Of a stretch of 37,347 nucleotides of DNA, positions 1-33,666 are shown piece after piece. The DNA is from a virus (taxonomy: Duplodnaviria > Caudoviricetes): IMG/VR virus record IMGVR_UViG_3300032237_000071, positions 1 to 37,347 of that record; one strand, given 5' to 3'. The translations under genes were made by a program, and so were the position numbers. The stretch's first letter is position 1; each line of letters begins with the position of its first letter. The notes under the pieces are model-generated. The model saw nothing but the letters and a program-made list of their open reading frames with translations. It searched no databases and had not been told where the DNA came from.

Positions 1-123
1 ACATGCATCCTTAAGCTCATCCTGTTTAGGTTTAAAGATGTGTGCTTTAGCACCAAACAATTCAGCTACTTGGTTTGCTGCCGTTTTACCTGGCTCATCG
101 TTATCAAAGCAGATAGTGATACG
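1..123. repeat. Terminal overlap identical to 37225-37347 (circular assembly overlap)
   Basis: ACATGCATCC...GATAGTGATACG occurs at both ends, inside the primase-helicase ORF. Confidence 0.95.
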
Positions 124-714
124 ATCAAAGCTATCAAGGTATTCATAGCTTGCACGACAATCCTTTAGTGCAGCCTGTGCTCCGTTGCGTACTGACACTA
201 CTGGAAACCTAGACCCTGTTAGCTGATATGCTGCAAGTGCGTCAAACTCACCCTCAGTAATCGTAATAGCCTTGCCACCTGGAGTAAACTTGTTCTGTCC
301 GAACAGAGTAGCATGCTTCCAATCACCCTGAATACTGAATGATTTCTCTGCTACACTTCTTACCTTAGCTGCAATTACCTTGCCTGTTGCATCGCAATAG
401 GGAAAGTAGTAATTCTTACCATCAGAACCTGCCCCATAATGGTGCATAGTAGCTGCTGATATACCACGTTCTACAACGTGTACTGCTTCTGTGTTTTTAA
501 ATACCTCTAGCACTGGTTTATAGCCCTCTGGTTGCGTTTGTTTAAAGGAGGTGATACCTAGCCCTTCCAAGTCTTCTATCGTGGCTCTAGGAGCTTTCTC
601 GTGAGTGTGACATACATAACAGAACGTATGCCCATCATCGAATAAAGCATTCCCATCTGAAGACCCACATTTCTGACACTCAATATGCTTTAGGAATGCT
701 GAGTCATTCTTCAT
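1..714 (-). CDS. DNA primase-helicase, N-terminal part (T7 gp4-like Zn finger + TOPRIM); continues at 37224..36301, ~545 aa in total
   Basis: Manual translation from ATG 714: MKNDSAFLKHIECQKCGSSDGNALFDDGHTFCYVC (T7 gp4 Zn-binding motif), ITEGEFDALA, ICFDNDEPG; GGAG RBS upstream; in frame across the junction. Confidence 0.95.
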   Translation of the reverse strand, partial: MKNDSAFLKHIECQKCGSSDGNALFDDGHTFCYVCHTHEKAPRATIEDLEGLGITSFKQTQPEGYKPVLEVFKNTEAVHVVERGISAATMHHYGAGSDGKNYYFPYCDATGKVIAAKVRSVAEKSFSIQGDWKHATLFGQNKFTPGGKAITITEGEFDALAAYQLTGSRFPVVSVRNGAQAALKDCRASYEYLDSFDRITICFDNDEPGKTAANQVAELFGAKAHIFKPKQDELKDAC

Positions 715-874
715 AAGACATCTCCATCTGCTTAACTTCTCTGTTGCAATTCTCTGCAAGCATTTCATAGATATCAATCATCACTCTGTCTACACCATGC
801 TGTTTGACATAATCAACTATGTCACATAGCGTGAAATGATAGTGTGCTTCTTGGTCGTGTTTAAAGCAACTCAT
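704..874 (-). CDS. Hypothetical protein (56 aa, MSCFKHDQ...)
   Basis: ORF track 704..916; ATG 874 preferred because the upstream part lies in the AT-rich repeat/leader. Confidence 0.6.
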   Translation of the reverse strand: MSCFKHDQEAHYHFTLCDIVDYVKQHGVDRVMIDIYEMLAENCNREVKQMEMSYEE

Positions 875-910
875 CTTCTTAGTTCCTATATAGAAAACAT
901 AAATATATAA

Positions 911-940
911 TAACAACTTAAGACTACTTAATACTACTTA
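911..940. repeat. Three phased 10-bp tandem repeats (TAACAACTTA/AGACTACTTA/ATACTACTTA)
   Basis: Read directly; 913-936 matches 5557-5580 at 23 of 24 bp. Confidence 0.85.
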
Positions 941-946
941 GTAGAT

Positions 947-976
947 AGTATACCACAGTTTTGAATAGTCTGTCAA
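947..976 (-). promoter_or_regulatory. sigma70 promoter for the primase/replication operon
   Basis: TTGACA (976-971), 18 bp spacer, TGgTATACT (-10 at 952-947). Confidence 0.75.
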
Positions 977-1173
977 TCATAATTTTCATGATCATAGTCT
1001 TCTGTTGTCTGTTCTTCGTCACCATCGTAGAGGTCATATCGCTCTTCTGATATTAGGTCTTCCTTGATTGTGCTATAACACTTGTTGCACATATCCAGGT
1101 AGTCTCCTGTCGTTACACTCTTACGTGTAGATTCAAAGTCACTTAGTATTTTATCACAACAATAGCATCTCAT
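973..1173 (-). CDS. Small Cys-rich (Zn-finger-like) protein with acidic tail
   Basis: MRCYCC...CNKC; D/E-rich C-terminus. Confidence 0.7.
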   Translation of the reverse strand: MRCYCCDKILSDFESTRKSVTTGDYLDMCNKCYSTIKEDLISEERYDLYDGDEEQTTEDYDHENYD

Positions 1174-1358
1174 ACAATCCCCTGTCTTAAAATTTTATAA
1201 GCCCAATTGAACTTATTGTCTGCGTTCTTACGTTTAAATACCTTAACTGTCTCTATCCTAAAGCATTTGTCGATAGCTGCAAATCCAATCGCTTCGTCCT
1301 TATTACTAAATATTCTAATAACCCCTACTTCATCACTAATCTTATACAGTTTAGTCAT
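1170..1358 (-). CDS. Hypothetical protein (62 aa, MTKLYKIS...)
   Basis: Start moved to ATG 1358, which has a GGAGG RBS and overlaps the end of the upstream gene. Confidence 0.65.
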   Translation of the reverse strand: MTKLYKISDEVGVIRIFSNKDEAIGFAAIDKCFRIETVKVFKRKNADNKFNWAYKILRQGIV

Positions 1359-1956
1359 TAAGTAATCCTCCCCATTGTTGTGCCATTGCATCTGCGATAC
1401 CCTGGAATGTCTTATTACGCATCTTCTCCCTTTCTTTTGGAGGTAGACAAGAGCTATCATAATACCATTGACTCATGCGTTTACCAGACTTAGCAACCCA
1501 CACAGTACCCTTATCTACTACATTAGTAGGTACTAACTTAGGTAGATTCTTTAGCCACAAGCACGTAGCCTTAGTGACACTGTGTCCATACTCCCAAGGG
1601 TTTACAATCTGATCAGGTTTTCTCCACTTGCTGCTCATAATCCCAATAGGATTCTCAATAGCGTACCTAGGAATATTTGAATTAGCTAGTGCCATAAAGA
1701 AATCTATACCTTCTTGCTGCCGTCCGTCTGCAATCTTCTTAGCAAAGTGCCTTGCACCTGATACTGCTAGGTGTGTGCATGGAGGGTGAGCAATCATCAA
1801 ATCCCACCCCTCATTCATAATAGCCAAGACATTCCCTTGATAGTGGTTTCCAGGGGTATCACTAGGCTCTAAATCACAAGACCATGCATCATGCCCTAGT
1901 TTAGTAAAGGCATCCCTTACAGTCCCACTAAATTCACAAGCTACTAATACTTTCAT
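1351..1956 (-). CDS. Phage DNA cytosine-5 methyltransferase-like protein (short type)
   Basis: VLVACEFSG (motif I-like), AHPPCT (catalytic PC), IENP (motif VI), terminal RNKTFQGIADAMA helix. Confidence 0.75.
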   Translation of the reverse strand: MKVLVACEFSGTVRDAFTKLGHDAWSCDLEPSDTPGNHYQGNVLAIMNEGWDLMIAHPPCTHLAVSGARHFAKKIADGRQQEGIDFFMALANSNIPRYAIENPIGIMSSKWRKPDQIVNPWEYGHSVTKATCLWLKNLPKLVPTNVVDKGTVWVAKSGKRMSQWYYDSSCLPPKEREKMRNKTFQGIADAMAQQWGGLLND

Positions 1957-2048
1957 AATCTACCCTCCAGATAACCCATCATAACATGCATTGTGAAATA
2001 AAACAAGGCAAACAATAATAAATATGCAACCATTTTATCTTCATTCAT
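1953..2048 (-). CDS. Small membrane peptide (31 aa, MNEDKMVAYLLLFALFYF...)
   Basis: ATGA overlaps at both ends; one hydrophobic helix. Confidence 0.55.
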   Translation of the reverse strand: MNEDKMVAYLLLFALFYFTMHVMMGYLEGRL

Positions 2049-2113
2049 TCTTTTATTCCTATAAAGTATGCACAAATTAGTAGCAAGATAACCACAGTCC
2101 AATAGCCATTCAT
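2045..2113 (-). CDS. Small membrane peptide (22 aa, MNGYWTVVILLLICAYFIGIKE)
   Basis: TAATG-coupled to the upstream stop and ATGA-coupled downstream; not in the ORF track. Confidence 0.5.
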   Translation of the reverse strand: MNGYWTVVILLLICAYFIGIKE

Positions 2114-2286
2114 TAGTCATCGTCTCCATAATCCTTGACATCTCCGTTAGCTTCTTGATCCCAATATCCGTTTAGATATTCTGTCTCTTGCTCCTTAGTA
2201 AACTCTTTACGGATAGTTATAGGACGTTGGTAATACGCATCTGCACTACCTAGATCATACGGGCTGCCATATTCTTTATTCATCAT
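2113..2286 (-). CDS. Hypothetical protein (57 aa, MMNKEYGSPYDLGSADAYY...)
   Basis: GAGGGAG RBS before ATG 2286; the ORF-track N-terminal extension overlaps another gene. Confidence 0.65.
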   Translation of the reverse strand: MMNKEYGSPYDLGSADAYYQRPITIRKEFTKEQETEYLNGYWDQEANGDVKDYGDDD

Positions 2287-2401
2287 TGTCTTCTCCCTCG
2301 TTATCTTCATCTGTCTCTTCATCATACTCTGATTCATCAAAGTCTTCATCTTCAGGTTCGTAGTAGCCATCATTATAATAGCCGTCACTGTATCGATTCA
2401 T
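2276..2401 (-). CDS. Hyper-acidic 41-aa peptide
   Basis: MNRYSDGYYNDGYYEPEDEDFDESEYDEETDEDNEGEDNDE; GAGGAGG RBS; 21 of 41 residues are D/E. Confidence 0.7.
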   Translation of the reverse strand: MNRYSDGYYNDGYYEPEDEDFDESEYDEETDEDNEGEDNDE

Positions 2402-2570
2402 AGTCTAATTCCTCCTCGCATCCGTTAGTAAACTCTTCACCCTCTACCATCTGCCAATGACCTGACATATCCCAAGCTTTATCTATTGCACTTGCTTCAT
2501 CAATAGCTTCGATTGTAAATTCTTTAGCATAATACTCTACTCTTGATAATGATACTTTAAATGTTTTCAT
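2385..2570 (-). CDS. Small acidic protein, DpnD/PcfM-like pattern
   Basis: MKTFKVSLSRVEYYAKEFTIEAIDEASAIDKA; ATGA coupling at 2567-2570. Confidence 0.6.
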   Translation of the reverse strand: MKTFKVSLSRVEYYAKEFTIEAIDEASAIDKAWDMSGHWQMVEGEEFTNGCEEELDYESIQ

Positions 2571-2725
2571 TTTCCACACTCCTCTTCATGGTTAGTCATA
2601 GAATCTATTTCATCTTTAGTATACACCACAAACCATTTACCATCAATCTCTAAGCATGCATTAGAATACATTTCAGCCTCTATATAAGTACTAAACCATT
2701 CGCCATTACAACAATAATTATTCAT
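2567..2725 (-). CDS. Hypothetical protein (52 aa, MNNYCCNGEWFSTYIEAE...)
   Basis: Manual translation; fills the gap and is coupled to its neighbours. Confidence 0.6.
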   Translation of the reverse strand: MNNYCCNGEWFSTYIEAEMYSNACLEIDGKWFVVYTKDEIDSMTNHEEECGK

Positions 2726-2726
2726 T

Positions 2727-3119
2727 TCAGTCTACCTTAAAAAAGTATTTAACATAAGACCTGGGATTCGGCTTTTGATTATCGTACCATACTCCATCAA
2801 TCAAAGCAAGTGCATGCCTAGATTTTATTACATAATACTTGCCCGTAGGATACATCTTAGCAAACTTAGCAAGCGAGAGTTTTAATTTCGTAGGCATCTG
2901 CCAATTGTTGATAGCCTTCTCTGGAGTACCCTGTTTAAGTACGTTTAAAGCCGTTGTGATCATGCGAACGCTGCTACCCTTACCCCCTACCCTACCATGA
3001 TCCGAAAACGTCTTATAGACCTCATAATAGGGTTTATTGAGCACGATTGACATTGCATTAAGAGCACAATTATTTCTATCCGTACTAGTAATATCTGCTA
3101 ACTGTTTAACGTATTCCAT
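2727..3119 (-). CDS. Putative papain-like (Cys-His-Asp) peptidase-fold protein
   Basis: NNCALNAMSI...YYVIKSRHALALIDGVWYD; GGGAG RBS before ATG 3119. Confidence 0.5.
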   Translation of the reverse strand: MEYVKQLADITSTDRNNCALNAMSIVLNKPYYEVYKTFSDHGRVGGKGSSVRMITTALNVLKQGTPEKAINNWQMPTKLKLSLAKFAKMYPTGKYYVIKSRHALALIDGVWYDNQKPNPRSYVKYFFKVD

Positions 3120-3136
3120 TTTATAGTGCTCCCGTT

Positions 3137-3394
3137 TTAACTGTTCCAAAGGTTTAAGGTTTTATTTTCTTGAGATCTTTTATAGGCATTCTTACCCTCT
3201 GCAATGCCTTGCCCTGATATCTCCCTAATCCATCCCCATCCATGCCAGAATCCATTAGACAATTCTAGGGTGATACTATTCTCACCCCAATAAATCTCGA
3301 TTAGATTTTCCCCGTTGTGCTCTGCCTCTCTGATCTTATCTAATACCTTTTTAGTAGATGGTTTTCTACCTTGAAATTCATATGCATATGACAT
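3137..3394 (-). CDS. Hypothetical protein
   Basis: ORF track; GGAGG RBS. Confidence 0.7.
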   Translation of the reverse strand: MSYAYEFQGRKPSTKKVLDKIREAEHNGENLIEIYWGENSITLELSNGFWHGWGWIREISGQGIAEGKNAYKRSQENKTLNLWNS

Positions 3395-3396
3395 AA

Positions 3397-3561
3397 TTAA
3401 ACCTCCTCCACTAATTCAATTTCACTATTCCCATAATCGCACCAATCCCAATCTAATGCATCCGATTCTAAAGCAATTCTCTCCGCCTCTTCTCTAGAGT
3501 TTGCCTTTACGTTTGCCACTAGATAAGTATATTGTCTAGTTACTATTCTATATTCATTCAT
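3397..3561 (-). CDS. Small acidic protein, DpnD/PcfM-like pattern (54 aa)
   Basis: MNEYRIVTRQYTYLVANVKANSREEAERIALESDALDWDW...; AGGAG RBS; not in the ORF track. Confidence 0.65.
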   Translation of the reverse strand: MNEYRIVTRQYTYLVANVKANSREEAERIALESDALDWDWCDYGNSEIELVEEV

Positions 3562-3578
3562 TTTAATGCTCCTATTGT

Positions 3579-4229
3579 TTACTGTTTAACCGCTAGAATT
3601 TTAATTACCTTAGCCATCTTAACACCATGCGACTTATAGGCTATCAATGGCACGTCTTTATTGTAGCATGATCTGCACCCGTTGCATTTTCCTTCATGCT
3701 CATATGCTCGGCAGATTGTAGCATTGCTTGGCAATTGAGACTCTTCACTAAATATGGTACTAGTGGTAAACCCTGGAATTGCTGCACCCTCTACACTATC
3801 GCTAGAGAATCTCACCACTACATTATCAAGAGCTTGCATTTTAGCTATCACAGAATGGAATTTTTTAAATTTATGCATTCTAGTAGGAATCCAAAATTTT
3901 ACCCATGTAGCTCTAGTGCATAGCTCTAGAATTTTCTCGGCTAACTCTAGAGAATACATATCTCCGCTATCAAAGAATCTGAAATATCTAGAGCTATCAA
4001 GAGCGATAAGCATATCTTCTACCCATTCAGATCTCTGCCAATCTTCTCTATTGTGAATCCTAGGAGCTTTTACATTCGGATAGTTATAATTGCCCGTAGT
4101 GGCATAGCATCCCTTGCATGCATCTACTAATGAGCCGTCTTTATTCTTACTTGCAGGGCAAGTCTCTAGAGCTTGCAGAGACCATGAGAGAATGCCATCT
4201 AGCTTACTTGTTTTCGATAGTTTGATCAT
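3579..4229 (-). CDS. GP88-family / radical-SAM-like Fe-S protein
   Basis: LSKTSKL...TCP...ACKGCYA..GNY, FRFFDSGD, WIPTR, VRFS and C-terminal C-x8-CxxCxxC. Confidence 0.7.
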   Translation of the reverse strand: MIKLSKTSKLDGILSWSLQALETCPASKNKDGSLVDACKGCYATTGNYNYPNVKAPRIHNREDWQRSEWVEDMLIALDSSRYFRFFDSGDMYSLELAEKILELCTRATWVKFWIPTRMHKFKKFHSVIAKMQALDNVVVRFSSDSVEGAAIPGFTTSTIFSEESQLPSNATICRAYEHEGKCNGCRSCYNKDVPLIAYKSHGVKMAKVIKILAVKQ

Positions 4230-4241
4230 GATTGATATTCC

Positions 4242-4529
4242 TTATAGATAACGTTGATGGATATAGATATCTGCTTCTAATGGCATCTGCCTTTTTGTAA
4301 CTGTTCCACCCCATCCATACTTAGACGGGCTTTTATCAGAATATGGCAGAATAGGTTTACGATATTTTACAGTCACAATAGGGAGCTTTTTAGCACCTCT
4401 AGATTTTAATACTTTACGCTTTAATGCTACACCCTTTTTAAGTGATTCTAGAGAGCCAATATCTTGCTTATCGTCTAGCTTGATAGTGCATAGATATGAT
4501 GTAGATTTTGCATTCTTTTTATATGGCAT
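4242..4529 (-). CDS. Basic hypothetical protein
   Basis: ORF track; AAGGAG RBS; Lys-rich. Confidence 0.7.
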   Translation of the reverse strand: MPYKKNAKSTSYLCTIKLDDKQDIGSLESLKKGVALKRKVLKSRGAKKLPIVTVKYRKPILPYSDKSPSKYGWGGTVTKRQMPLEADIYIHQRYL

Positions 4530-4540
4530 GGTAAGACTCC

Positions 4541-4684
4541 TTATTTAACTATTTCAGATGTAAGAATTAAATTATCCTTACTTGTATTGTTTTCGCTGAT
4601 ACATTGTAGAGCGTTTTCTCTGCTCTCGAATGCTCCTAATACTTCGCTTGTATCTTCATTTATTACAATCCATACTAATAGCAT
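4541..4684 (-). CDS. Hypothetical protein (47 aa, MLLVWIVINEDTSEVLGAFESRENA...)
   Basis: Start moved to ATG 4684, after TAAGGAG. Confidence 0.65.
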   Translation of the reverse strand: MLLVWIVINEDTSEVLGAFESRENALQCISENNTSKDNLILTSEIVK

Positions 4685-4695
4685 AATAAGACTCC

Positions 4696-4773
4696 TTATA
4701 GATAGAAAACTACTTGAATGACTAACAGAATTATAGCCGATATTGTGATACATGTATTTAATAAACTCTTCAT
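4696..4773 (-). CDS. First early gene: 25-aa single-helix membrane peptide
   Basis: MKSLLNTCITISAIILLVIQVVFYL; AAGGAG RBS; its stop is fused to the next RBS. Confidence 0.6.
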   Translation of the reverse strand: MKSLLNTCITISAIILLVIQVVFYL

Positions 4774-4804
4774 TCTTATGCTCCTTGTTGTTGATTCATA
4801 CCTT

Positions 4805-4850
4805 ATCTTAACGGATTAAATTCAAATAAGTATACATAGGACAAACCCTA
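4805..4850 (-). promoter_or_regulatory. Candidate early promoter with a 14-bp dyad box TAGG-N6-CCTA (4837-4850)
   Basis: -10-like TAAGAT at 4810-4805, poor -35, dyad centred about 45 bp upstream of the inferred start. Confidence 0.4.
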
Positions 4851-4855
4851 ATACT

Positions 4856-4869
4856 TAAGTAATTGATTT
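4856..4869 (-). promoter_or_regulatory. IHF consensus site
   Basis: Minus strand AAATCAATTACTTA fits WATCAANNNNTTR. Confidence 0.6.
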
Positions 4870-4970
4870 ATAAGGATTTAATACCCTGGCAGCTTGTAGG
4901 GTTATTATTGCATGGTGTTTATTCTCATTAAATTATCAGCTCATTAGATCTCAGCTCTGCTTATCTGGAA

Positions 4971-4987
4971 TGCTTAATATTTAGGCA
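4971..4987. promoter_or_regulatory. Fis-like site
   Basis: TGCTTAATATTTAGGCA fits GNNYAWWWWWTRNNC; near-identical copies at 5249 and 5272. Confidence 0.55.
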
Positions 4988-4990
4988 ATC

Positions 4991-5101
4991 ATCTATATGA
5001 TCTATATCAGTCATATGATCTATATGGTCTAAGTTATTTAGTGTCTAAGTGATGGCTCTAGGTAGTGTCTAGGTAGTCTGTCTAGGTGGTGTCTAAATAG
5101 T
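4991..5101. repeat. Array of nine short degenerate TCTA-core repeats
   Basis: TCTA at 4992, 5001, 5019, 5028, 5044, 5057, 5068, 5081, 5092 (ATCTATATG, GTCTAAGT and TCTAGGTAGT variants). Confidence 0.75.
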
Positions 5102-5248
5102 CTCTTATAGGGTGGTTTACATCCTCTTACACTTGCACAATAAACTCAATAATTCTATTTAATTCTTTTTAGTTTGACGGGGGAGGGGGTTAATTGATTT
5201 AATTTATTAATCAGATGGCTCTCAAACTCACGAGAAGGTAAATTAAGT

Positions 5249-5288
5249 TGCTTAAAAAATAGGCATAATACTGCTTAAATATTAGGCA
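5249..5288. promoter_or_regulatory. Two tandem Fis-like sites
   Basis: TGCTTAAAAAATAGGCA (5249-5265) and TGCTTAAATATTAGGCA (5272-5288). Confidence 0.6.
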
Positions 5289-5313
5289 GTAGGTCTATAC
5301 AATATGTTCAATG

Positions 5314-5327
5314 AAATCAATGACTTA
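5314..5327 (+). promoter_or_regulatory. IHF consensus site (inverted relative to 4856-4869)
   Basis: AAATCAATGACTTA fits WATCAANNNNTTR; 13/14 identical to the other site. Confidence 0.65.
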
Positions 5328-5468
5328 GTATAACTACTCAGCAGTACAACTAAACTATCAATAAAGGGGACAGAGTCAATATAGAAAAGACACTGCGGAA
5401 TACGTGCAAGCTTGTCTCTCCAGACCCGCAGAAGTAGACTACTCCAGGGAACTAATTAAAAATAAAGC

Positions 5469-5497
5469 TTGACAAATTTAATAAGTTATGGTATAAT
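5469..5497 (+). promoter_or_regulatory. Consensus sigma70 promoter of the packaging/structural arm
   Basis: TTGACA, 17 bp spacer, TATAAT with extended TG. Confidence 0.9.
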
Positions 5498-5566
5498 AGT
5501 TGTACTAAGAAGAAGACTAAGTCGAAAAAAACAAAAAGAAATAAAAACAGAGTAAGACAACTTAAG

Positions 5567-5586
5567 ACTACTTAGTACTAAGTAGT
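5567..5586. repeat. Perfect 20-bp palindrome ACTACTTAGTACTAAGTAGT
   Basis: Equals its own reverse complement. Confidence 0.9.
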
Positions 5587-5616
5587 GTGTAGTTTATTAT
5601 TTTTGTTGGTACTTAT

Positions 5617-5663
5617 AGGTATCAATTTGTCTTAGTATTTTATACCTAAAGGTATCAATTTGT
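5617..5663 (+). repeat. 14-bp direct repeat AGGTATCAATTTGT (5617, 5650)
   Basis: Exact copies 33 bp apart. Confidence 0.8.
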
Positions 5664-5695
5664 TCTCTGCGTTAGCAGGTAAAGAAAAGGTTTAA

Positions 5696-6115
5696 ATGTC
5701 TGATGATGTCTCTTTTAAAGAGTTGTTGTTGTCTTCCCCCACAGTCCCACGTAGGAGGGGTCGTCCTCCTAAGTCACTTGTGGAGAGCAAGAAGAAGAGA
5801 AACAAAGTAGGAAGACCTTTAGGCGATGCAGGAAGAATACAAGAATTCAAAGCAAGGTTATTATCTACTTCGGGTACAAAGGTTATTGATACTGTACTTA
5901 GAAAAGCTTTGGATGATTCTGACAAAGACCAAGTAGCATGTCTTAAAATGTGTCTTGATAGAATGTTACCTACATCTCTATTTGAAAAAGATGCTAAAGG
6001 ACAACGTAATGCAGTAACGATTAATATTACTGGATTAGGTGAAACTAAGGTTGAAGCAGTAGAAGAAATAGAAGCTGAGATAGTCGACTATAACGAAATA
6101 AAGGAAGAACAATAA
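5696..6115 (+). CDS. Putative terminase small subunit
   Basis: Position before TerL; AT-hook-like RRRGRPPK and GRP; helical core ACLKMCLDRMLP; VTINITG tail. Confidence 0.65.
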   Translation: MSDDVSFKELLLSSPTVPRRRGRPPKSLVESKKKRNKVGRPLGDAGRIQEFKARLLSTSGTKVIDTVLRKALDDSDKDQVACLKMCLDRMLPTSLFEKDAKGQRNAVTINITGLGETKVEAVEEIEAEIVDYNEIKEEQ

Positions 6116-6258
6116 TGGCAACTAAGAAACCATCCCCTGGTCTAGTAAAAAAATTAGCAAAAGAATACCCTAAAGGTGTAATGATTCAAGATGCTAAACT
6201 TCCTAAAGGTGCAGTAGTAGCTACAAAAAAGAAATCAACAAACTTAAAAGCTAAGTAA
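6115..6258 (+). CDS. Small Lys-rich protein (47 aa)
   Basis: MATKKPSPGLVKKLAKEYPKG...; TAATG-coupled; its stop directly precedes the TerL TTG. Confidence 0.65.
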   Translation: MATKKPSPGLVKKLAKEYPKGVMIQDAKLPKGAVVATKKKSTNLKAK

Positions 6259-7512
6259 TTGAATTTAAGCTTTGAGTTACTACCTTGGCAAAAAGAAGTA
6301 TTCCAAGATACTACTAGATTTAAAGTTATTGTTGCTGGACGACGATGTGGTAAATCTAGATTATCTGCTGTGGCATTATTAGTCGAAGGACTACGTTGCC
6401 CACAAGGTAGTGCTGTAATGTATGTTGCGCCAACCCAGGGTCAAGCTCGTCAGATTATCTGGGATGTATTAATGGATTTAGGTAGAGATGTTATTCAAAG
6501 CAGTCATGTGAATAATATGGATATAACCTTAATCAATGGAGCAAAGATATATGTACGAGGCTCTGATAGACCTGACACCTTGCGTGGTGTTAGTCTTACT
6601 TTTTTGGTACTGGACGAAGTAGCTGATATTAAGAGTGAAACCTGGGAGAAGGTCTTACGTGCCTCACTTTCTGATAAAAAGGGGAACGCTCTTTTCATTG
6701 GGACACCAAAGGGTCGTAACTGGTTCTACGAGATGTATAACCTTGGTAAGACAGAAGATGATCCTGAATGGAAGAGCTGGCACTTTACGACCAAGGATAA
6801 TCCGCTTATCGATCCGCAAGAGATTGAAGGGGCTAAAAAGACGCTTAGTAGCTTCTCGTTTAAGCAGGAATACGAAGCCTCCTTTGATAACGCAGGAACA
6901 GACCTATTCAAAGAACAATGGATTAGGTTTGGTGAAGAACCAGATGATGGTGTCTACTACATAGCAATCGACTTAGCTGGCTTTACTAACGTAAACTACA
7001 GCAGCACAAGACAAAAGAAATTAGATGAATCAGCAATCGCAGTAGTAAAAGTTACTGATGATGGTGTTTGGTTTGTAAAGAAGATTGAGCATGGACGTTG
7101 GGATGTTAAGGATGCTGCTGCACGTATCCTAAAGAACATCAAGGAGTTTAAACCAATGGGTGTAGGGATGGAGCGAGGCACAGTTAGAAACGCTGTGTTG
7201 CCCTATCTAAGCGATCTGATGCGATCTAACAACATATACGCTTCTGTGCAAGACTTAACGCATGGTGGTAAACAAAAGACTGAACGTGTTGTCTGGGCAT
7301 TACAGGGACGATTCGAGCATGGTAAAGTAATCCTGAATGAGGATGAAGATTGGAAAGAGTTCCAAGACCAGCTACTGATGTTCCCTACCAGTCAAGTGCA
7401 TGATGACTTGGTTGATGCATTAAGTTACATAGATCAACTTGCAGTAACATCATACTTTGAAGATGAAGGTAATGATGGTGTTGAACCCCTTGACTTTATA
7501 TCAGGATACTAA
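6259..7512 (+). CDS. terL: Terminase large subunit
   Basis: Walker A AGRRCGKS, Walker B VLDE, IGTPKG, nuclease IDLA...HDDLVDA. Confidence 0.95.
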   Translation: MNLSFELLPWQKEVFQDTTRFKVIVAGRRCGKSRLSAVALLVEGLRCPQGSAVMYVAPTQGQARQIIWDVLMDLGRDVIQSSHVNNMDITLINGAKIYVRGSDRPDTLRGVSLTFLVLDEVADIKSETWEKVLRASLSDKKGNALFIGTPKGRNWFYEMYNLGKTEDDPEWKSWHFTTKDNPLIDPQEIEGAKKTLSSFSFKQEYEASFDNAGTDLFKEQWIRFGEEPDDGVYYIAIDLAGFTNVNYSSTRQKKLDESAIAVVKVTDDGVWFVKKIEHGRWDVKDAAARILKNIKEFKPMGVGMERGTVRNAVLPYLSDLMRSNNIYASVQDLTHGGKQKTERVVWALQGRFEHGKVILNEDEDWKEFQDQLLMFPTSQVHDDLVDALSYIDQLAVTSYFEDEGNDGVEPLDFISGY

Positions 7513-8008: not shown

Positions 8009-9988
8009 ATGGCAACTAAGAAGATGGAGCAATTTGAAGAAACTCCAGTAACAGATGCAGATCAAGACCTAATTGAGTTTGTAAGTACACATTGTACTGA
8101 GTGGAGAAACAATAGAGACGTTAATTACCTTAAGACTTGGGAAGAATATGAGCGTATGTTCCGTGGTATTTGGGACTTAGCTGATCAGAGTCGTGATTCA
8201 GAGCGTAGTCGTTTAGTAACTCCAGCATTACAACAAGCTATTGAAGCTAAGCAAGCTGAAATTGCTGAAGCAGTCTTTGGTCGTGGAGATTTCTTTGATA
8301 TCGCTGATGATGTGCAAGATCAAGACCCTGCAGATATTGAACTAGTACGTCGTCAAATGCACGAAGACTTCCAGTTTAGTCGTGTTAAGAAGTCTATTGA
8401 TGATATTATTCTCTTAGCTGAGATGTATGGTACTGGTATTGGCGAGATTGTAATAGAAGAGAAGACAGTTATGTCTCCTGATACGCAACCTATTCCAGGA
8501 AGTGGTATGGCAGCTATTGGTGTACAAGAAAAAAAGCAATTTATGGTGGCTATTAATCCTATTAATCCACGTAACTTTCTCATTGATCCTAATGCTACCA
8601 CAGTTGAAACATCTTTAGGTGTAGCAATTGAAGAATATATGTCTTACTATACCATTATTCAAGGTATGGAAAAGGGAATCTATCGTAAAGTTAATGTAGT
8701 TCCTGGATATGGCTCTACTAGACTAGAAGAAACACAAGAACCAGTACCTTCACGTAGCGATAAACTACAAGTTATTCGTTACTATGGTCTTGTTCCTCGT
8801 GATATGCTTGAAGGATTAGAAGCATCAGAAACTACTGTAGAGTTATTCCCAGAAGAGTCTGTGGCTGACCACTACTCTGACATGGTTGAAGCTGTAGTTG
8901 TTATTGCAGACAATCAATATCTCCTTAAAGCTGAGCCTTCTCCTTATATGATGAAGGACCGTCCTATTGTTTCCTATCAAGCAGACTCAATGCCAGGTCG
9001 TTTCTGGGGTCGAGGGACTGCTGAGAAGGGCTACAATATGCAGAAAGCTATTGATGCTCAGATCCGTAGTCACTTAGATTCTTTAGCACTAACTACTGCA
9101 CCAATGATGGCTATGGATGCTACACGTTTACCTCGTGGTGCTAAGTATGAAGTACGTCCAGGTAAGAACCTTTTGGTTAACGGTAATCCTAATGAGATTA
9201 TGATGCCATTTAAGTTTGGCACTACAGATCCTGCTAATTTTGCTACAGCACAGAACTTTCAACAAATGCTCTTAGCTGCTACTGGTACTCTAGATAGTTC
9301 ATCTATGCCAGGTCAAGTAGCTGGTGGTGAAGCTTCAGGTGCTGGTATGTCTATGGCTCTGTCTGGTTTGATGAAGAAGAACAAACGTGCTCTCATTAAC
9401 TTTCAAGAAGACTTCCTAATCCCATTCATCCGTAAGGCTGCTTGGAGATTTATGCAGTTTGATCCTGAGCGTTACCCAGTAAAAGACTTTAAGTTTGTTC
9501 CTTTATCTACAATGGGAATGGTTGCTCGTGAATATGAACAACAACAGTTAGTTGGCTTAATGCAAACCCTTGGACCTACAAGTCCTATTACTCCAGTCTT
9601 GCTACAGGGCATTATTCAGTCCTCAAGTCTGTCTAATAGAGATACTATTATTGGACAACTACAGCAAATGAGTCAGCCTGACCCAATGCAAGAACAAGTA
9701 CAACAGTTACAAATGGCTACTGCACAGGCTACGCTTCAGAAAACTCAAGCTGAAGCTGCCTTGGCTATGGCTAATGCACAGAAAGCAGGTGCTCAAGCTC
9801 AAGCCGTTCCTGCTGAAACGCAAGCTAAACTGCTATCTGCAGCGTCTAAGAACACTTCTGATCCTATGTCAAAAGAGTTTGAGAATCGTATGAAATTAGC
9901 TGATAAACTGATTAAAGTAGAAGATATCAAGTCAAATGAGCGTATTGCTGAGATGCAAATGAATAGAAAAGTACAAAATATTGCTTGA
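8009..9988 (+). CDS. Portal protein
   Basis: 659 aa after TerL; YGTGI and FWGRG motifs; Gln/Ala-rich C-terminal coiled-coil barrel as in P22-type portals. Confidence 0.88.
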   Translation: MATKKMEQFEETPVTDADQDLIEFVSTHCTEWRNNRDVNYLKTWEEYERMFRGIWDLADQSRDSERSRLVTPALQQAIEAKQAEIAEAVFGRGDFFDIADDVQDQDPADIELVRRQMHEDFQFSRVKKSIDDIILLAEMYGTGIGEIVIEEKTVMSPDTQPIPGSGMAAIGVQEKKQFMVAINPINPRNFLIDPNATTVETSLGVAIEEYMSYYTIIQGMEKGIYRKVNVVPGYGSTRLEETQEPVPSRSDKLQVIRYYGLVPRDMLEGLEASETTVELFPEESVADHYSDMVEAVVVIADNQYLLKAEPSPYMMKDRPIVSYQADSMPGRFWGRGTAEKGYNMQKAIDAQIRSHLDSLALTTAPMMAMDATRLPRGAKYEVRPGKNLLVNGNPNEIMMPFKFGTTDPANFATAQNFQQMLLAATGTLDSSSMPGQVAGGEASGAGMSMALSGLMKKNKRALINFQEDFLIPFIRKAAWRFMQFDPERYPVKDFKFVPLSTMGMVAREYEQQQLVGLMQTLGPTSPITPVLLQGIIQSSSLSNRDTIIGQLQQMSQPDPMQEQVQQLQMATAQATLQKTQAEAALAMANAQKAGAQAQAVPAETQAKLLSAASKNTSDPMSKEFENRMKLADKLIKVEDIKSNERIAEMQMNRKVQNIA

Positions 9989-10013
9989 CTTTTAAGCAAA
10001 ACTATGTTATAAT
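9985..10013 (+). promoter_or_regulatory. sigma70 promoter for scaffold/capsid genes, with a Fis-like dyad over the -35
   Basis: TTGACT, 17 bp spacer, TGtTATAAT; TTGCTTGACTTTTAAGCAA dyad at 9981-9999. Confidence 0.8.
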
Positions 10014-10060
10014 ATTAATACACTAACACACATTTACTCCCTTGTCAAGGAAAAAGTTAA

Positions 10061-12618: not shown

Positions 12619-15600
12619 ATGGGCATCTATCGTGGTCCTGGTGGTACTGGTGACGCTACGCAAGATGCTTCATCCCAGGCAGTTATCACAATTCAAGCTA
12701 AAGATGCTGCACTAGCTGCTCAGGCTGCTGCAGAAACTTCTGCTACTAACGCATCGACAAGTGCATCTAATGCTTCTACGTCAGCAACTTCTGCTTCTTC
12801 ATCTGCATCATCGGCTACTACTTCTGCAAGCAATGCCTCAACATCAGCTACCAACGCAGCTAGTTCCGCTTCTTCAGCTTCAACATCAGCTTCAACAGCT
12901 ACTACTCAAGCAGGTATAGCCACAACAAAAGCAAGTGAAGCAAGCACATCTGCTACCAACGCATCTACTTCTGCATCTACTGCAACTACTCAGGCAACTA
13001 ATGCGTCTAATTCAGCAAGTGCAGCAAGCACTTCAGCAACTAATGCTTCAAACAGTGCGACTTCTGCAGCCACATCTGCAACCAATGCAAGCAACTCAGC
13101 TACATCCGCTTCAGGATCAGCTACTACAGCAACTACTCAAGCCTCTAATGCCAGCACTAGTGCATCTAATGCAGCATCCTCTGCATCAAGTGCGTCTACC
13201 TCAGCTAGTACGGCTACTACTCAAGCAGGAATAGCTACTACTCAGGCTTCTAACGCTTCCTCTTCAGCATCTGCCGCATCTACTTCTGCAACTAATGCAT
13301 CAAATTCAGCCACAAACGCTGCTACTTCAGCCACAAACTCTGCTAGTTCCGCCACTTCTTCTGCATCTTCTGCAACAGCTTCTGCTGCTGCTCGTGATGC
13401 TGCTTTAGCTGCTTTAGATAGTTTTGATGATAGATACTTAGGAACTAAAACATCAGATCCTACATTAGATAACGATGGTAATGCTTTAGTTTCTGGTGCT
13501 TTGTATTTTAATACTACTACTAATAGTATGAATGTATATGATGGCTCTCTTTGGTTAGCTGCTTATGCTTCATTATCTGGTGCTTTACTTGCAACTAATA
13601 ATTTATCTGATTTAAACAATACAGCAACTGCACGTACTAATTTAGGTTTAGGAACTGCAGCAACAACAGCATCTTCTGCATATGCTACTGCAGCACAAGG
13701 AACTAAAGCAGATTCAGCATTACAACCTGCAACTATTGGTTCTACAGTTCAAGCATGGGATGGTGATTTAGATGCTATTGGAGCTATTTCAGGAACATCT
13801 GGATTACTAAAGAAAACTGCTGCTAATACTTGGTCATTAGATACTAATACTTATTTAACTTCTGCAGTTACTTCAGTTACAGGAACTTCTCCTGTTGTGT
13901 CATCAGGTGGTAACACTCCAGCAATAAGTATTCCTGCAGCAACTACTTCTGTAAATGGATATTTAACATCTGCAGATTGGACAACTTTTAATGGTAAACA
14001 AGCAGCTCTAGTTAGTGGTACAAATATTAAGACTGTAAACAGTACAAGTGTTTTAGGGTCTGGAGATGTTTCTGTAGGTGTGACAAGTGTTACAGGAACT
14101 GCACCAGTAGTTTCAAGTGGTGGTGCAACACCAGCTATCTCAATGGCTGCAGCTAACACAACAACTAATGGTTATTTAACAAGTACTGATTGGAATACCT
14201 TTAACGGTAAACAAGCTGCAGGTTCTTATGTGACTGTTGGAGGTGCTTTAGGTACACCTTCTAGTGGTACACTAACAAACTGTACTTTCCCTACACTTAA
14301 TCAAAACACTACAGGTACAGCAGCTAACGTAACTGGTACTGTGGTAGTAGCTAACGGAGGTACAGGTTCAACAACCCTTACTGCTAATAACGTATTATTA
14401 GGTAATGGAACTTCAGCACTACAAGCTGTTGCTCCTGGAACATCAGGTAACGTATTAACTTCTAATGGTACAACTTGGACAAGTGCAACACCTGCAGGAG
14501 GTGGTTTTAGTGGGGCAACAACCAATGCAATAGGTTCTTCTGCGATTACGCTTACAAGTTCGTCTACTCAATATCAAGTAACGCAAATTACTAGCCTTGC
14601 AAACTGCATTGTCAATTTGCCAAACGCAACAACTTTAACAGTTAAAGGTTTTGCACCTTATGTTATTGAAAACCGAAATCCTTGTGGTGGTAATTTATCC
14701 ATTAAAGATGCTAGTGGTACAGTAATAGGTTATATTCCTATTGGATATATTGGTCTTGTTGCTTTAAAAGACAATTCAACTTCTGCTGGTTCTTGGACAG
14801 TTGAAAAAGTCCAACCACAAACATTTTTGAATTGGGATACAGCCAGTTATTCGCTTAACACCCAAACTGGTACTACATTTTATGGAATGGTTGGTTTAAC
14901 TTCTACTTTATTTGTGCGTTTTAGATTTAGTAGAACAGGTGGTGCTGGTGCTTATACTACTGTTGTTTATTCACAAGCGTGTTCTATTTCAGGAAGCACA
15001 ATTACTTTTGGTACAACAGTTAGTTTTAACTTTTATACTACAAGTGGTCCTAATTATGCAGAAAATATTTATCAATTCCAAGCAATTAGATTATCAAATA
15101 CTGCTTATGTATTAAAAATTGGCGGTGTGAATGTGGTTGGTTGTACTAGAACTGCAAGCAATAATTTTAGAGTTTGCACAGTTTCAGGTACAACTATTAC
15201 ACAAGGTTCATCATCTAATGGTGGTTTACCCCAAACTGCTGATGGTGCTAATGGTTATGCGGCTGATGCCGCCTCTGTTAATGGTGTTATTACAAGATTG
15301 TCTGATACTTCTTTTGCTCTTATTTACAATTCAGCTTGTTCAGATACTTATATTTCACCTTATGGTTATTCAGGTTCTTTAGCGGCACAAATTGTTACAG
15401 TTAGTGGAACAACGCTAACGATTGGAACTGCCGTAAACTTAGGCACAAGCACTTATTCACAGCCTACTTCAATAGTTGCACTATCTTCTACTTCTTTGTT
15501 TGTTGCTTACGGTCAATCTGCATCTGCTGGGGCAACAACAGGTAGAAGCAAAATGAATGTGGTTTCTGTTTCGGGAACAACTCCTACATGGGGAACTTCA

Positions 15601-15993
15601 GTCAGTATTGAAGCGGCTGATACTATTAATTATTTAAACACATGGGCTTTAATTGATGGAGCAGTAGCACCATCTTCATCGCAAGTAGTATTTTGTACTG
15701 GTTACAACACTTCCGAAGGAACTGTATCAGGAACTACACCAACTTATGATTCAAGCCCTTATGGTAGTGCAATAGCACCTTTATTTTTATCAACATCATC
15801 AAAAGCATGGTCACCTAGTCGTATATATTTGAATATTCAAACTGGCGGTTTTGTAACAACAACAAACGCTATTGATTTAATACAAATTAACACCCCTTAT
15901 TCAGCAACACCGCAATCACCATTAGGGGCGCAACCAACTACATCCTTTGTTGGTGCTGATAACCAATATGTTATGCTAGGAAACACATTATGA
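12619..15993 (+). CDS. Long fibre / receptor-binding protein
   Basis: Ala/Ser/Thr heptad stalk, [15 protein letters not shown] fibre motif, GGTG repeats, beta-rich C-terminal domain; followed by a chaperone gene. Confidence 0.85.
12730..13400 (+). repeat. Low-complexity heptad repeats (SASNAST / SATNASN)
   Basis: Seven-residue periodicity in the translation. Confidence 0.85.
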
Positions 15994-16979: not shown

Positions 16980-17339
16980 ATGTTTGGTAAATTAATTGCA
17001 TTACTACTTCTCTCAAGAGATACTGCTCACAGACAACACTGGGCTACTCTAAGTTTCTCACAGCATAAGACACTCAATGAGTTTTATGACAGTATCCTTG
17101 AACTCACAGATAGTTTGATGGAGAAATATCAGGGACGAAATGGTCGTGTAGAAGTTCCTACCTTGGAAGAGAAAGATACTTATTCTAAAGATCCTTCTGT
17201 AGTTCTTAAGAAGCATTTAGATTGGATTGAGAAAACTAGGTATGAAGTAGTCCCTGAAACTGATACAGCCCTACAAAACATCATTGATGAGATCGTAGGA
17301 CAATATCTTGAAACCCTGTATTTACTAACACTGGAGTAA
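16980..17339 (+). CDS. Ferritin/Dps-like four-helix protein (DUF5856-like)
   Basis: AHRQHWAT.SFSQHKTLNEFYD...DSLMEKYQG...LQNIIDEI...TLYLLTL. Confidence 0.65.
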   Translation: MFGKLIALLLLSRDTAHRQHWATLSFSQHKTLNEFYDSILELTDSLMEKYQGRNGRVEVPTLEEKDTYSKDPSVVLKKHLDWIEKTRYEVVPETDTALQNIIDEIVGQYLETLYLLTLE

Positions 17340-27619: not shown

Positions 27620-28092
27620 AAGTAAGTGACAAAGCTCTTGAAGTTATCCGTCATCATGAAGGTGTTAGGACAAAGCCTTATCAATGTCCTGCTCTTCTTT
27701 GGACTATTGGGGTTGGTCATGTTATTGATCCAAATCATGGGAAGATCCCATTAGCAGAACGTAAAGCGTTACCTATACCTGAAGGATGGAATAGGACAAT
27801 AACGATGGAGGAAGTAGATGGAATTCTTAAGCGAGATCTTGCAAGCTTTGAACGAGGTGTCGAGCGATACTGTCCTGTTACACTTACACAAGGTCAGTTT
27901 GATGCTCTTGTCAGCTTCAGCTTCAATGTTGGTCTTGGAACACTACAGAGATCAACCCTCCGTCAGAAGGTTCTTCGTGGAGATATGGACGGTGCTGCAG
28001 AAGAGTTTCTCAAGTACACGATAGGTGGTGGTAAGGTACTGAAAGGACTCGTAAACCGTCGTAACGATGAACGAGCCCTCTTTAAATCTTAG
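27616..28092 (+). CDS. Endolysin, GH24 lysozyme
   Basis: HEG..TKPYQCPALLWTIGVGH, QFDALVSFSFNVG, GLVNRRNDERALF. Confidence 0.92.
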   Translation: MKVSDKALEVIRHHEGVRTKPYQCPALLWTIGVGHVIDPNHGKIPLAERKALPIPEGWNRTITMEEVDGILKRDLASFERGVERYCPVTLTQGQFDALVSFSFNVGLGTLQRSTLRQKVLRGDMDGAAEEFLKYTIGGGKVLKGLVNRRNDERALFKS

Positions 28093-30162: not shown

Positions 30163-30332
30163 TCTTCTTCCGTCCAATCTACTTCCTTAAGAAGTCTATT
30201 ATAATTATTTTCAATGATATCACCGAAGGTTTCAACTAAATCTTCTGAAGCTATATCGAGTAGCTCCAGAAGTATTACTTCATCTAAACTCTTCAACCGT
30301 TCTTTTAACTCTGGCAGTGTAAGAGTATTCAC
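30159..30332 (-). CDS. Small acidic helical protein (57 aa)
   Basis: GTG start, (M)NTLTLPELKERLKSLDEVILLELLDIASEDLVE...; ATGA-coupled to the RNR gene. Confidence 0.65.
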   Translation of the reverse strand: MNTLTLPELKERLKSLDEVILLELLDIASEDLVETFGDIIENNYNRLLKEVDWTEEE

Positions 30333-30335
30333 AGT

Positions 30336-30638
30336 TTATTTCTTCTTAACAATTTTCGTAGATGATTCTTTAGCTGGAGTAGCAGACATACACTTCTCAG
30401 CAAACTCAATTGCTTTCTCAGCAGCTTCAATCATTGCTCGTAATTGTTTGATGGATTCTTGTGGTTTGTAATCAGATACCCAAAACTGAGTAGCATCTTT
30501 TAAACCTGTCTGAATTGTAAAATCAACCCACCAATCAGCAGCATCTTTGAATGCACCATCTACATTTACAAATGCGTTGTTCTTAGGAAAGAACTTATTA
30601 AAATTAATTGTGTCTTTAGCTTTTTTAGTATCAAACAT
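30336..30638 (-). CDS. Hypothetical protein (100 aa, MFDTKKAK...)
   Basis: Start moved to ATG 30638 (AAGGAG RBS, downstream of the promoter). Confidence 0.7.
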   Translation of the reverse strand: MFDTKKAKDTINFNKFFPKNNAFVNVDGAFKDAADWWVDFTIQTGLKDATQFWVSDYKPQESIKQLRAMIEAAEKAIEFAEKCMSATPAKESSTKIVKKK

Positions 30639-30673
30639 TATATACTCCTTTAATTGTTTATGTGTTAACATAT

Positions 30674-30702
30674 ATTATACTTTTATTTAATGTAGTTGTC
30701 AA
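30674..30702 (-). promoter_or_regulatory. Consensus sigma70 promoter
   Basis: TTGACA, 17 bp spacer, TATAAT. Confidence 0.85.
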
Positions 30703-33608: not shown

Positions 33609-33637
33609 TTATTTCTCCTATTAAAATTACAACATAT

Positions 33638-33666
33638 ATTATACCACGTTTTAATGCAACTGTCCA
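33638..33666 (-). promoter_or_regulatory. sigma70 promoter
   Basis: TGGACA, 17 bp spacer, TGgTATAAT. Confidence 0.75.

Follow-up and report, generated by a model that had tools for sequence, protein, structure and literature searches.

Paired promoter-linked arrays of dyad boxes as candidate replication origins in an uncultured phage family

Organization of the genome and of the two cassettes

The window, i.e., the whole stretch of 37,347 nt that was analyzed, represents a circularly assembled phage genome of 37.2 kb with an end overlap of 123 nt. Minus-strand early and replication genes begin at 4753, plus-strand packaging and structural genes at 5696, and the two gene arms converge at 28092/28093. 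This plan is common to the window and to LUZ24 and tf, where the two arm starts flank the genome ends. Database matches revealed a T7-type replisome of gp4-like primase-helicase (phrog_239), Pol A (phrog_17) and gp2.5-like SSB (phrog_112; weak, E 9e-05), and the genome also encodes an exonuclease and a ribonucleotide reductase. In line with the initial annotation, which had described a phage with no RNA polymerase, neither an RNA polymerase nor an initiator family was matched among the 62 ORFs scanned. The conserved acidic 56-aa ORF that follows promoter A (Table 1) gave no informative Pfam, Atlas or fold match and no match to a DNA-binding fold. Likewise, the TerS-like ORF had no match in Pfam, PHROG or cultured phages; PF02178 (Pfam AT_hook) occurred in 11–52% of the members of its nearest Atlas clusters, and its structure model was of low confidence (pLDDT 51). 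On sequence grounds, the TerS-like protein is the best candidate lead for a binder of the boxes or AT tracts described below. Elsewhere in the genome, a tail-fibre-like gene (12619–15993, 1124 aa) contains 21-nt Ala/Ser/Thr repeats, and the structural arm includes a DUF5856/phrog_858 gene (“starvation-inducible transcriptional regulator”) at 16980–17339.

Table 1 Positions of genes, promoters and array parts in the 37,347-nt window
Feature	Position	Strand	Remarks
Primase-helicase, T7-type, N-terminal part	1..777	-	Continues at 37347-36301 across the 123-nt assembly overlap
Conserved acidic 56-aa ORF	704..874	-	First gene after promoter A; predicted helical hairpin
Box array A	874..943	unstranded	Candidate primary origin; parts in the rows below
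Array A, box	874-883		Over ribosome-binding region
Array A, CTATATAG dyad	886-893
Array A, A-rich tract	894-914
Array A, three 10-bp units	913-922, 923-932, 933-942
24-mer copy 1	913..936	+	Inside array A
Promoter A	947..976	-	Sigma70, TTGACA-18-TATACT, extended -10; ahead of replication operon; kept in related loci
G-rich tract GGGGGAGGGGG	5179..5189	+	Between the divergent arms, outside the arrays
Promoter B	5469..5497	+	Perfect sigma70 consensus with TG; ahead of packaging operon; kept in related loci
Box array B	5504..5611	unstranded	Candidate terminal (phiOR-like) origin
Array B, box	5504-5513		At predicted start site
Array B, A-rich tract	~5525-5548
Array B, 10-bp units	5557-5566, 5567-5576, 5577-5586		Followed by T-rich tract
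24-mer copy 2	5557..5580	+	Inside array B
TerS-like ORF	5696..6115	+	Named from position only; invariant RGRP and GRP AT-hook-like motifs

The initial annotation had drawn attention to a 24-mer that occurs at the heads of the replication and packaging operons, each copy behind a sigma70 promoter. Both copies were indeed found on the plus strand, differing only at 931 (A) versus 5575 (G). No third match was present in the window at up to three mismatches, and such matches occurred in 0/100 dinucleotide shuffles. The two promoters were confirmed as well: A (read from 976 to 947) matched the consensus at 11 of 12 positions and B at 12 of 12, both with the TG extension, and they were the top two of 23 consensus matches in 1–6500. 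Start sites are predicted at ~940 (A) and ~5504 (B). While pair and promoters held, the description proved incomplete, as it had missed the full 50-bp extent, the 10-bp units and a palindrome at copy 2. The 24-mer is the core of a longer ungapped direct repeat (50 bp, 82%; 894–943 versus 5528–5577) consisting of an A-rich tract and then 10-bp units, in which the boxes are ACT-N4-AGT dyads. Copy 2 overlaps a perfect 20-bp palindrome at 5567–5586 with 14 of its bases. Of the six strong sigma70 promoters of the genome, only A and B carry the array (6–7 box words versus 0–1), and among the AT-rich 60-mers of the window, A ranks 4th and B 7th. A single contig of run X1, which is possibly the source sample itself, covers 632–6500 with zero differences; an assembly artefact was rejected because both sites occur in relatives. 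The pair is a real, conserved DNA element, namely two paralogous cassettes of phased ACT-N4-AGT boxes and an A-rich tract.

Conservation of promoters and arrays in related loci

For comparison, we collected 124 distinct IMG/VR loci with a TerS-like gene; we estimate that the TerS patterns are matched by about 1,700 stretches stored in IMG/VR. The two promoters and the two arrays are found repeatedly among related loci. When 28 unique A and 49 unique B regions were scanned for dyads without bias, ACT-N4-AGT came out on top (162 versus 2.5 in shuffles). The outer triplets are retained, the four central positions are variable, the boxes occur in both orientations, and their spacing peaks at 12–13 bp. 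At least two boxes were present in all 28 A regions and at least one in 47 of the 49 B regions. Loci L060 and L074 (for both of which another promoter had been picked) and site A of L077 were left out of the leader-pairing, leader-fold, dyad-scan and word-model sets, and L078 was left out of the net-binding and swap test.

Persistence of the arrays was scored in 50 loci with both primase and TerS, taking a box density above the 99th percentile of the locus as presence. Array A was present in 44/50 loci (at most 1.1 kb from the primase) and array B in 45/50. Two of the six loci that missed site A, L095 and L121, have A 1.6–2.5 kb upstream; in L121, the A-type array about 2.5 kb upstream of the primase is flanked by a perfect 19-bp inverted repeat. 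A variant -10 element, TACCCT, is common to the A-type promoters of L077, L086, L095, L121 and L125. Site B was at background in L097, L103, L108, L115 and L118, with a strong site A in L103, L108 and L115. In L103, L105 and L119, the promoter nearest to TerS lies 46–111 nt before the gene and lacks an array.

The arrays persist at 40–60% protein identity and in LUZ24. Distant members use other boxes (CTATGTAG, CTATATAG, TACTCAGTA), often as inverted pairs flanking an AT tract. In clades 1 and 2, A and B are collinear over 50–70 bp, with different sequences in the two clades, and the cassettes are oppositely oriented relative to their own promoters. Unit number grows by slippage, as seen at site A of L028 and site B of L054, and the left boxes of clade-2 A sites consist of repeated Shine–Dalgarno-like units. 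There was no cultured close relative: the best primase identity was 58% (HTVC115P/103P), and TerS was without a match. Relatives of the primase on four MAG contigs bear four unrelated labels, and we therefore claim no host.

Likeness to the origins of T3 and T7 and to the arrays of LUZ24

A 5-mer word model, trained only on 74 A and B regions of the family against base-shuffled copies, was applied to other phages. In T3, its top genome-wide peak (5624, z 5.2) overlapped the annotated primary origin (phi1.05; rep_origin 5682–5758, NC_003298), whose leader begins with ACTACTTAAG, a 10-mer unit shared with the phage family. Furthermore, phi1.05, phi6.5 and phiOR took ranks 1–3 of 14 promoters, and a control model trained on reversed sequences had no origin in its top 8. 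In T7, the origin ranked 5th genome-wide, with phi1.1B 2nd and phiOR 9th of 17 promoters. In LUZ24, the right-end array came 1st, its internal paralog 3rd and the early/middle array 4th. The model showed nothing at the equivalent places in tf, SIO1, VpV262 and HTVC103P; the tf arrays are visible by eye though missed by the model, and HTVC103P, SIO1 and VpV262 have no such array by box-density or word-model scores. An earlier score from hand-picked words, in which the T7 origin came 1st and phiOR 2nd, was not counted because the words had been chosen after viewing those T7 stretches; the 5-mer model is its blind rerun.

The order of parts at the T7 origin equals that of site A: promoter, three TTAAG, AT tract, ACTAAG and start codon. 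Self-BLAST of the T7 segment between phi1.1B and gene 1.1 gives the phi6.5 leader as best match. Against origin specificity, ACTTTAAG-type words were found in ordinary T7 leaders too, the phi10 leader being a self-BLAST match. In general layout, the window resembles T3 and T7 in that a promoter at the early/middle junction leads straight into TTAAG/CTAAG repeats, then an AT-rich tract and a short first gene, that a second such leader lies near the right end, and that the replisome is of the same type. At both sites a consensus promoter is directly upstream, and the AT-rich tract downstream of it carries TTAA/TTAAG repeats. In contrast to T3 and T7, the promoters are of the host sigma70 type instead of the type read by a phage single-subunit RNA polymerase, no RNA polymerase was matched among the 62 ORFs scanned, the dyad boxes are phased, the terminal promoter points inward on the opposite strand, and an origin role is predicted from sequence. 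The cassette would work like a T3/T7 origin yet is not a strict member of that class, since its promoter is host-type; this lowers membership but leaves the proposed likeness in function untouched.

As described in two reports, T7 origins are promoter-dependent, with phi1.1A/B as primary and phiOR and phi6.5 as secondary origins (PMC8373140), and T7 helicase acting with DNA polymerase is able to dislodge an E. coli RNA polymerase that has stalled and to elongate that enzyme's RNA (PMC5997990). Host priming is therefore mechanistically plausible. We favor, with a probability of about one half, the reading that the cassettes are transcription-primed, promoter-coupled replication origins of the T3/T7 type that use host RNA polymerase. 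Transcription by host sigma70 RNA polymerase would extend into the AT-rich tract, and the resulting RNA would be taken up as primer by the primase-helicase and Pol A of the phage. At the early/middle junction, site A would be the primary origin, with site B as a secondary, T7 phiOR-like origin near the genome end; a phage protein may bind the boxes. The strong site A with a background site B in L103, L108 and L115 is as expected of a primary and a dispensable secondary origin. To our knowledge, no box-binding protein is required at T7 origins, and a pure T7 model therefore does not account for the phased dyads. Cumulative skews follow transcription, turning at the transcription divergence point and not at site A. 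Four-fold-site GC skew in the window is +0.09 in the middle arm and -0.20 in the late arm; most of 12 relatives show this arm difference, and T7, T3, LUZ24 and tf do not. The weak skew difference hints at one-way forks, with small counts and a possible contribution of codon bias. As far as we know, T7-type replisomes without an RNA polymerase are common in phages, and replication start in them is unmapped. The arrays offer exact, conserved candidate origins (or operators) for a large uncultured phage family.

Matching sites exist in LUZ24, a cultured phage in which testing is simple. LUZ24-like phages (Bruynoghevirus LUZ24, Krylovvirus tf) share with the window two convergent arms and the lack of an RNA polymerase, and LUZ24 and tf carry CTTAAG/CCTAAGG arrays behind their early/middle and right-end promoters (LUZ24 sigma70 promoters at 4834 and 45115). 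They differ in box sequence, and in LUZ24 two internal promoters bear additional copies of the array that read in transcript sense. One of these duplications spans the right-end promoter and array of LUZ24 (L130) at 45007–45124, which recurs at 30239–30356 before gp50 (91% over 119 nt). Bruynoghevirus records contain about two matches each (94 records, 194 places). The part of the tf report available to us lists promoters with no mention of arrays or origins (PMC3517423). SPP1, as portrayed in the accessible portion of PMC6316719, has two distant origins, oriL and oriR, each combining direct repeats with an unwinding element rich in AT; one is early and the other lies in the late region, a precedent for two repeat-plus-AT origins. 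Both sites in the window likewise combine repeats with an AT-rich element, as in an iteron origin. SPP1 differs in having the origin-binding protein gp38 and using the host replisome, whereas the 62 ORFs scanned here matched no initiator family. No description of the arrays in this phage family or in LUZ24-like phages emerged from the literature covered, which stops short of the older T3/T7 origin papers and the original LUZ24 genome paper; nor was matching literature found on complementary leaders in lytic phages, and the available parts of PMC12796468 and PMC4283147 held nothing relevant to arrays. The initial annotation, too, had known of no description of this arrangement.

Alternative readings of the arrays and further sequence features

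The main rival, which we hold to be unlikely although it deserves serious weight, is that the arrays are operators, on which a dimeric phage protein would bind the ACT-N4-AGT boxes across the start sites of two very strong promoters and time or damp middle and late transcription. The two roles could hold together. An operator array would be expected to place dyads over start sites at regular spacing, and this is what we observed: the top dyad of the unbiased scan, with its variable core, free orientation and 12–13-bp spacing, forms boxes that cover the predicted start sites of both promoters as well as the first ribosome-binding site. The invariant AT-hook-like motifs of the TerS-like protein and the PF02178 content of its nearest Atlas clusters also suit a binder. 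Helix-turn-helix or other regulator domains, however, were absent among the 28 small ORFs scanned in Pfam, and the 56-aa ORF is acidic and without a DNA-binding fold match. Moreover, the other four strong middle/late promoters lack an array, which argues against a global timing switch. The data from LUZ24 are two-sided. Its array copies at two internal promoters suit promoter regulation as well as origins. In the accessible section of the cappable-seq study, the table of 16 start sites has none at the most array-rich promoters, 45115 and 30347, and gives start sites at 4869 and 17248, which stem from the array-bearing promoters 4834 and 17213 (PMC10914365). The array-rich promoters without listed start sites could reflect occlusion or short primer RNAs.

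The initial annotation had interpreted the 24-mer primarily as an RNA switch, with the two leaders pairing in trans and so coupling replication and packaging, and alternatively as two binding sites of one protein. A role as replication origin was not among its readings. This interpretation is only partly supported. The alternative, two DNA sites of one kind, fits a conserved unit that is an orientation-free dyad; the switch itself we consider improbable. For the window pair, the predicted net binding of -18.3 kcal/mol exceeds that of four other leaders (-7 to -12). Over 33 pairs, the median duplex energy was -40.7 for antisense and -25.0 for the sense control, and permutation without tree correction rated cognate energies slightly better (p ~0.01 and 0.005). 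The collinearity of A and B in clades 1 and 2 despite their different sequences would also suit pairing. Swaps within 16 disjoint sister pairs gave no cognate advantage: the duplex with the proper partner won in 5 cases, lost in 5 and drew level in 6, and co-folding rated it stronger in 4, weaker in 8 and tied in 4, a test of low power because many sister pairs are nearly identical. Window B pairs at least as well with the non-cognate A of L028 and L030.

An exact complement of at least 18 nt was present in only 12/33 leader pairs, 11 of them from one close group; the longest exact complement was 5–15 nt in 6/18 clade-1 pairs and 9–13 nt in all 14 clade-2 pairs. The copies diverge independently in close relatives, an outcome that the initial annotation itself had named as refuting the switch, and the switch fails on this ground. 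For instance, A of L017 is near-identical to that of its sisters, and its B has three different boxes, so that the complement shrinks from 20 to 9 nt and net binding falls to -5.2, the level of the controls. In L009, L012, L014 and L028, the B boxes are reversed. The complementarity is not conserved through compensatory change, and the A–B mismatches showed no G:U bias (393 transversions, 67 A:C-type, 55 G:U-type; counts not independent). The sites A and B of the outgroup loci L076 and L078 resemble each other when read as transcripts and therefore cannot pair. The 14 bases of copy 2 within the palindrome lie in a self-hairpin. Leader folds are not conserved either, given that unique B leaders of close relatives fold differently and both strands score alike, and Rfam gave no match at threshold and two sub-threshold matches only. 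A leader-duplex switch is hence unsupported as a family feature, yet physically possible. With the dyads conserved and the pairing not, the apparent target of selection is the double-stranded dyads and the AT content rather than the pairing.

As a special case, the duplicated origin cassette of clades 1 and 2 might have been co-opted as a trans-encoded, ColE1-like control, in which the terminase leader RNA would pair over ~50 nt with the 5′ end of the site-A primer/primase transcript and stop origin firing at the onset of packaging. In ColE1, RNA I controls the primer RNA II as an antisense RNA that is cis-encoded and perfectly complementary. The likeness is that the 5′ end of a primer transcript could be bound by a complementary RNA; the difference is that the antisense RNA would here arise at a second locus and that the pairing is not conserved. 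We regard this joint proposal as a long shot; if true, it would be an RNA replication-to-packaging switch made of two host-polymerase-primed origins. Caution is advised, as DNA cassettes of the same orientation that are read from opposite sides mimic an antisense pair. If the cassettes are origins as we propose, the leader complementarity would be a by-product of exactly this arrangement, and duplication or conversion would be the simplest account of the shared DNA orientation in clades 1 and 2.

It is still less probable that the arrays are leader DNA of low complexity whose likeness is maintained by duplication, slippage and conversion, with promoter and ribosome-binding sequence as the only function. 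The slippage in L028 and L054 and the Shine–Dalgarno-like boxes of clade 2 agree with this reading, but outer triplets are kept as cores vary, the spacing has its peak at 12–13 bp, and the arrays survive at 40–60% protein identity and in LUZ24. Least probable of all, and very unlikely, is a role as wrapping sites of the terminase small subunit in packaging or concatemer processing: site B is only ~300 bp away from the candidate terminus and immediately precedes the TerS-like gene, which has AT-hook-like motifs, and the shared DNA polarity of the two copies would be in keeping with a directional motor, but it is A, at a distance of ~4.3 kb from the terminus, that is near-universal, B is lost in L103, L108 and L115, and a separate G-rich signal is conserved at the terminus.

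This G-rich tract lies 210–720 nt upstream of the TerS-like gene in 86/93 loci (those with at least 900 nt upstream) and is a likely candidate for a genome end or terminase signal. Just before it, at 5025–5100, five short TCTARGT-type repeats are found, reminiscent of those close to the ends of the T7 genome. An imperfect palindrome, TAGG-N-CCTA, precedes the early genes at 4837–4850, in a region that is also TAAG/CTTA-dense; a similar motif occurs in 26/88 loci. An identical 14-mer covers the -10/start region of two minus-strand middle promoters (30667–30680 and 33631–33644), possibly indicating a second promoter class. Finally, the leader of a late promoter (9985–10060) has a short hairpin-like stretch ahead of the ribosome-binding site that includes TTGTCAA, which is the -35 region of this promoter in reverse complement; the same feature is present in L060, L074 and L087.
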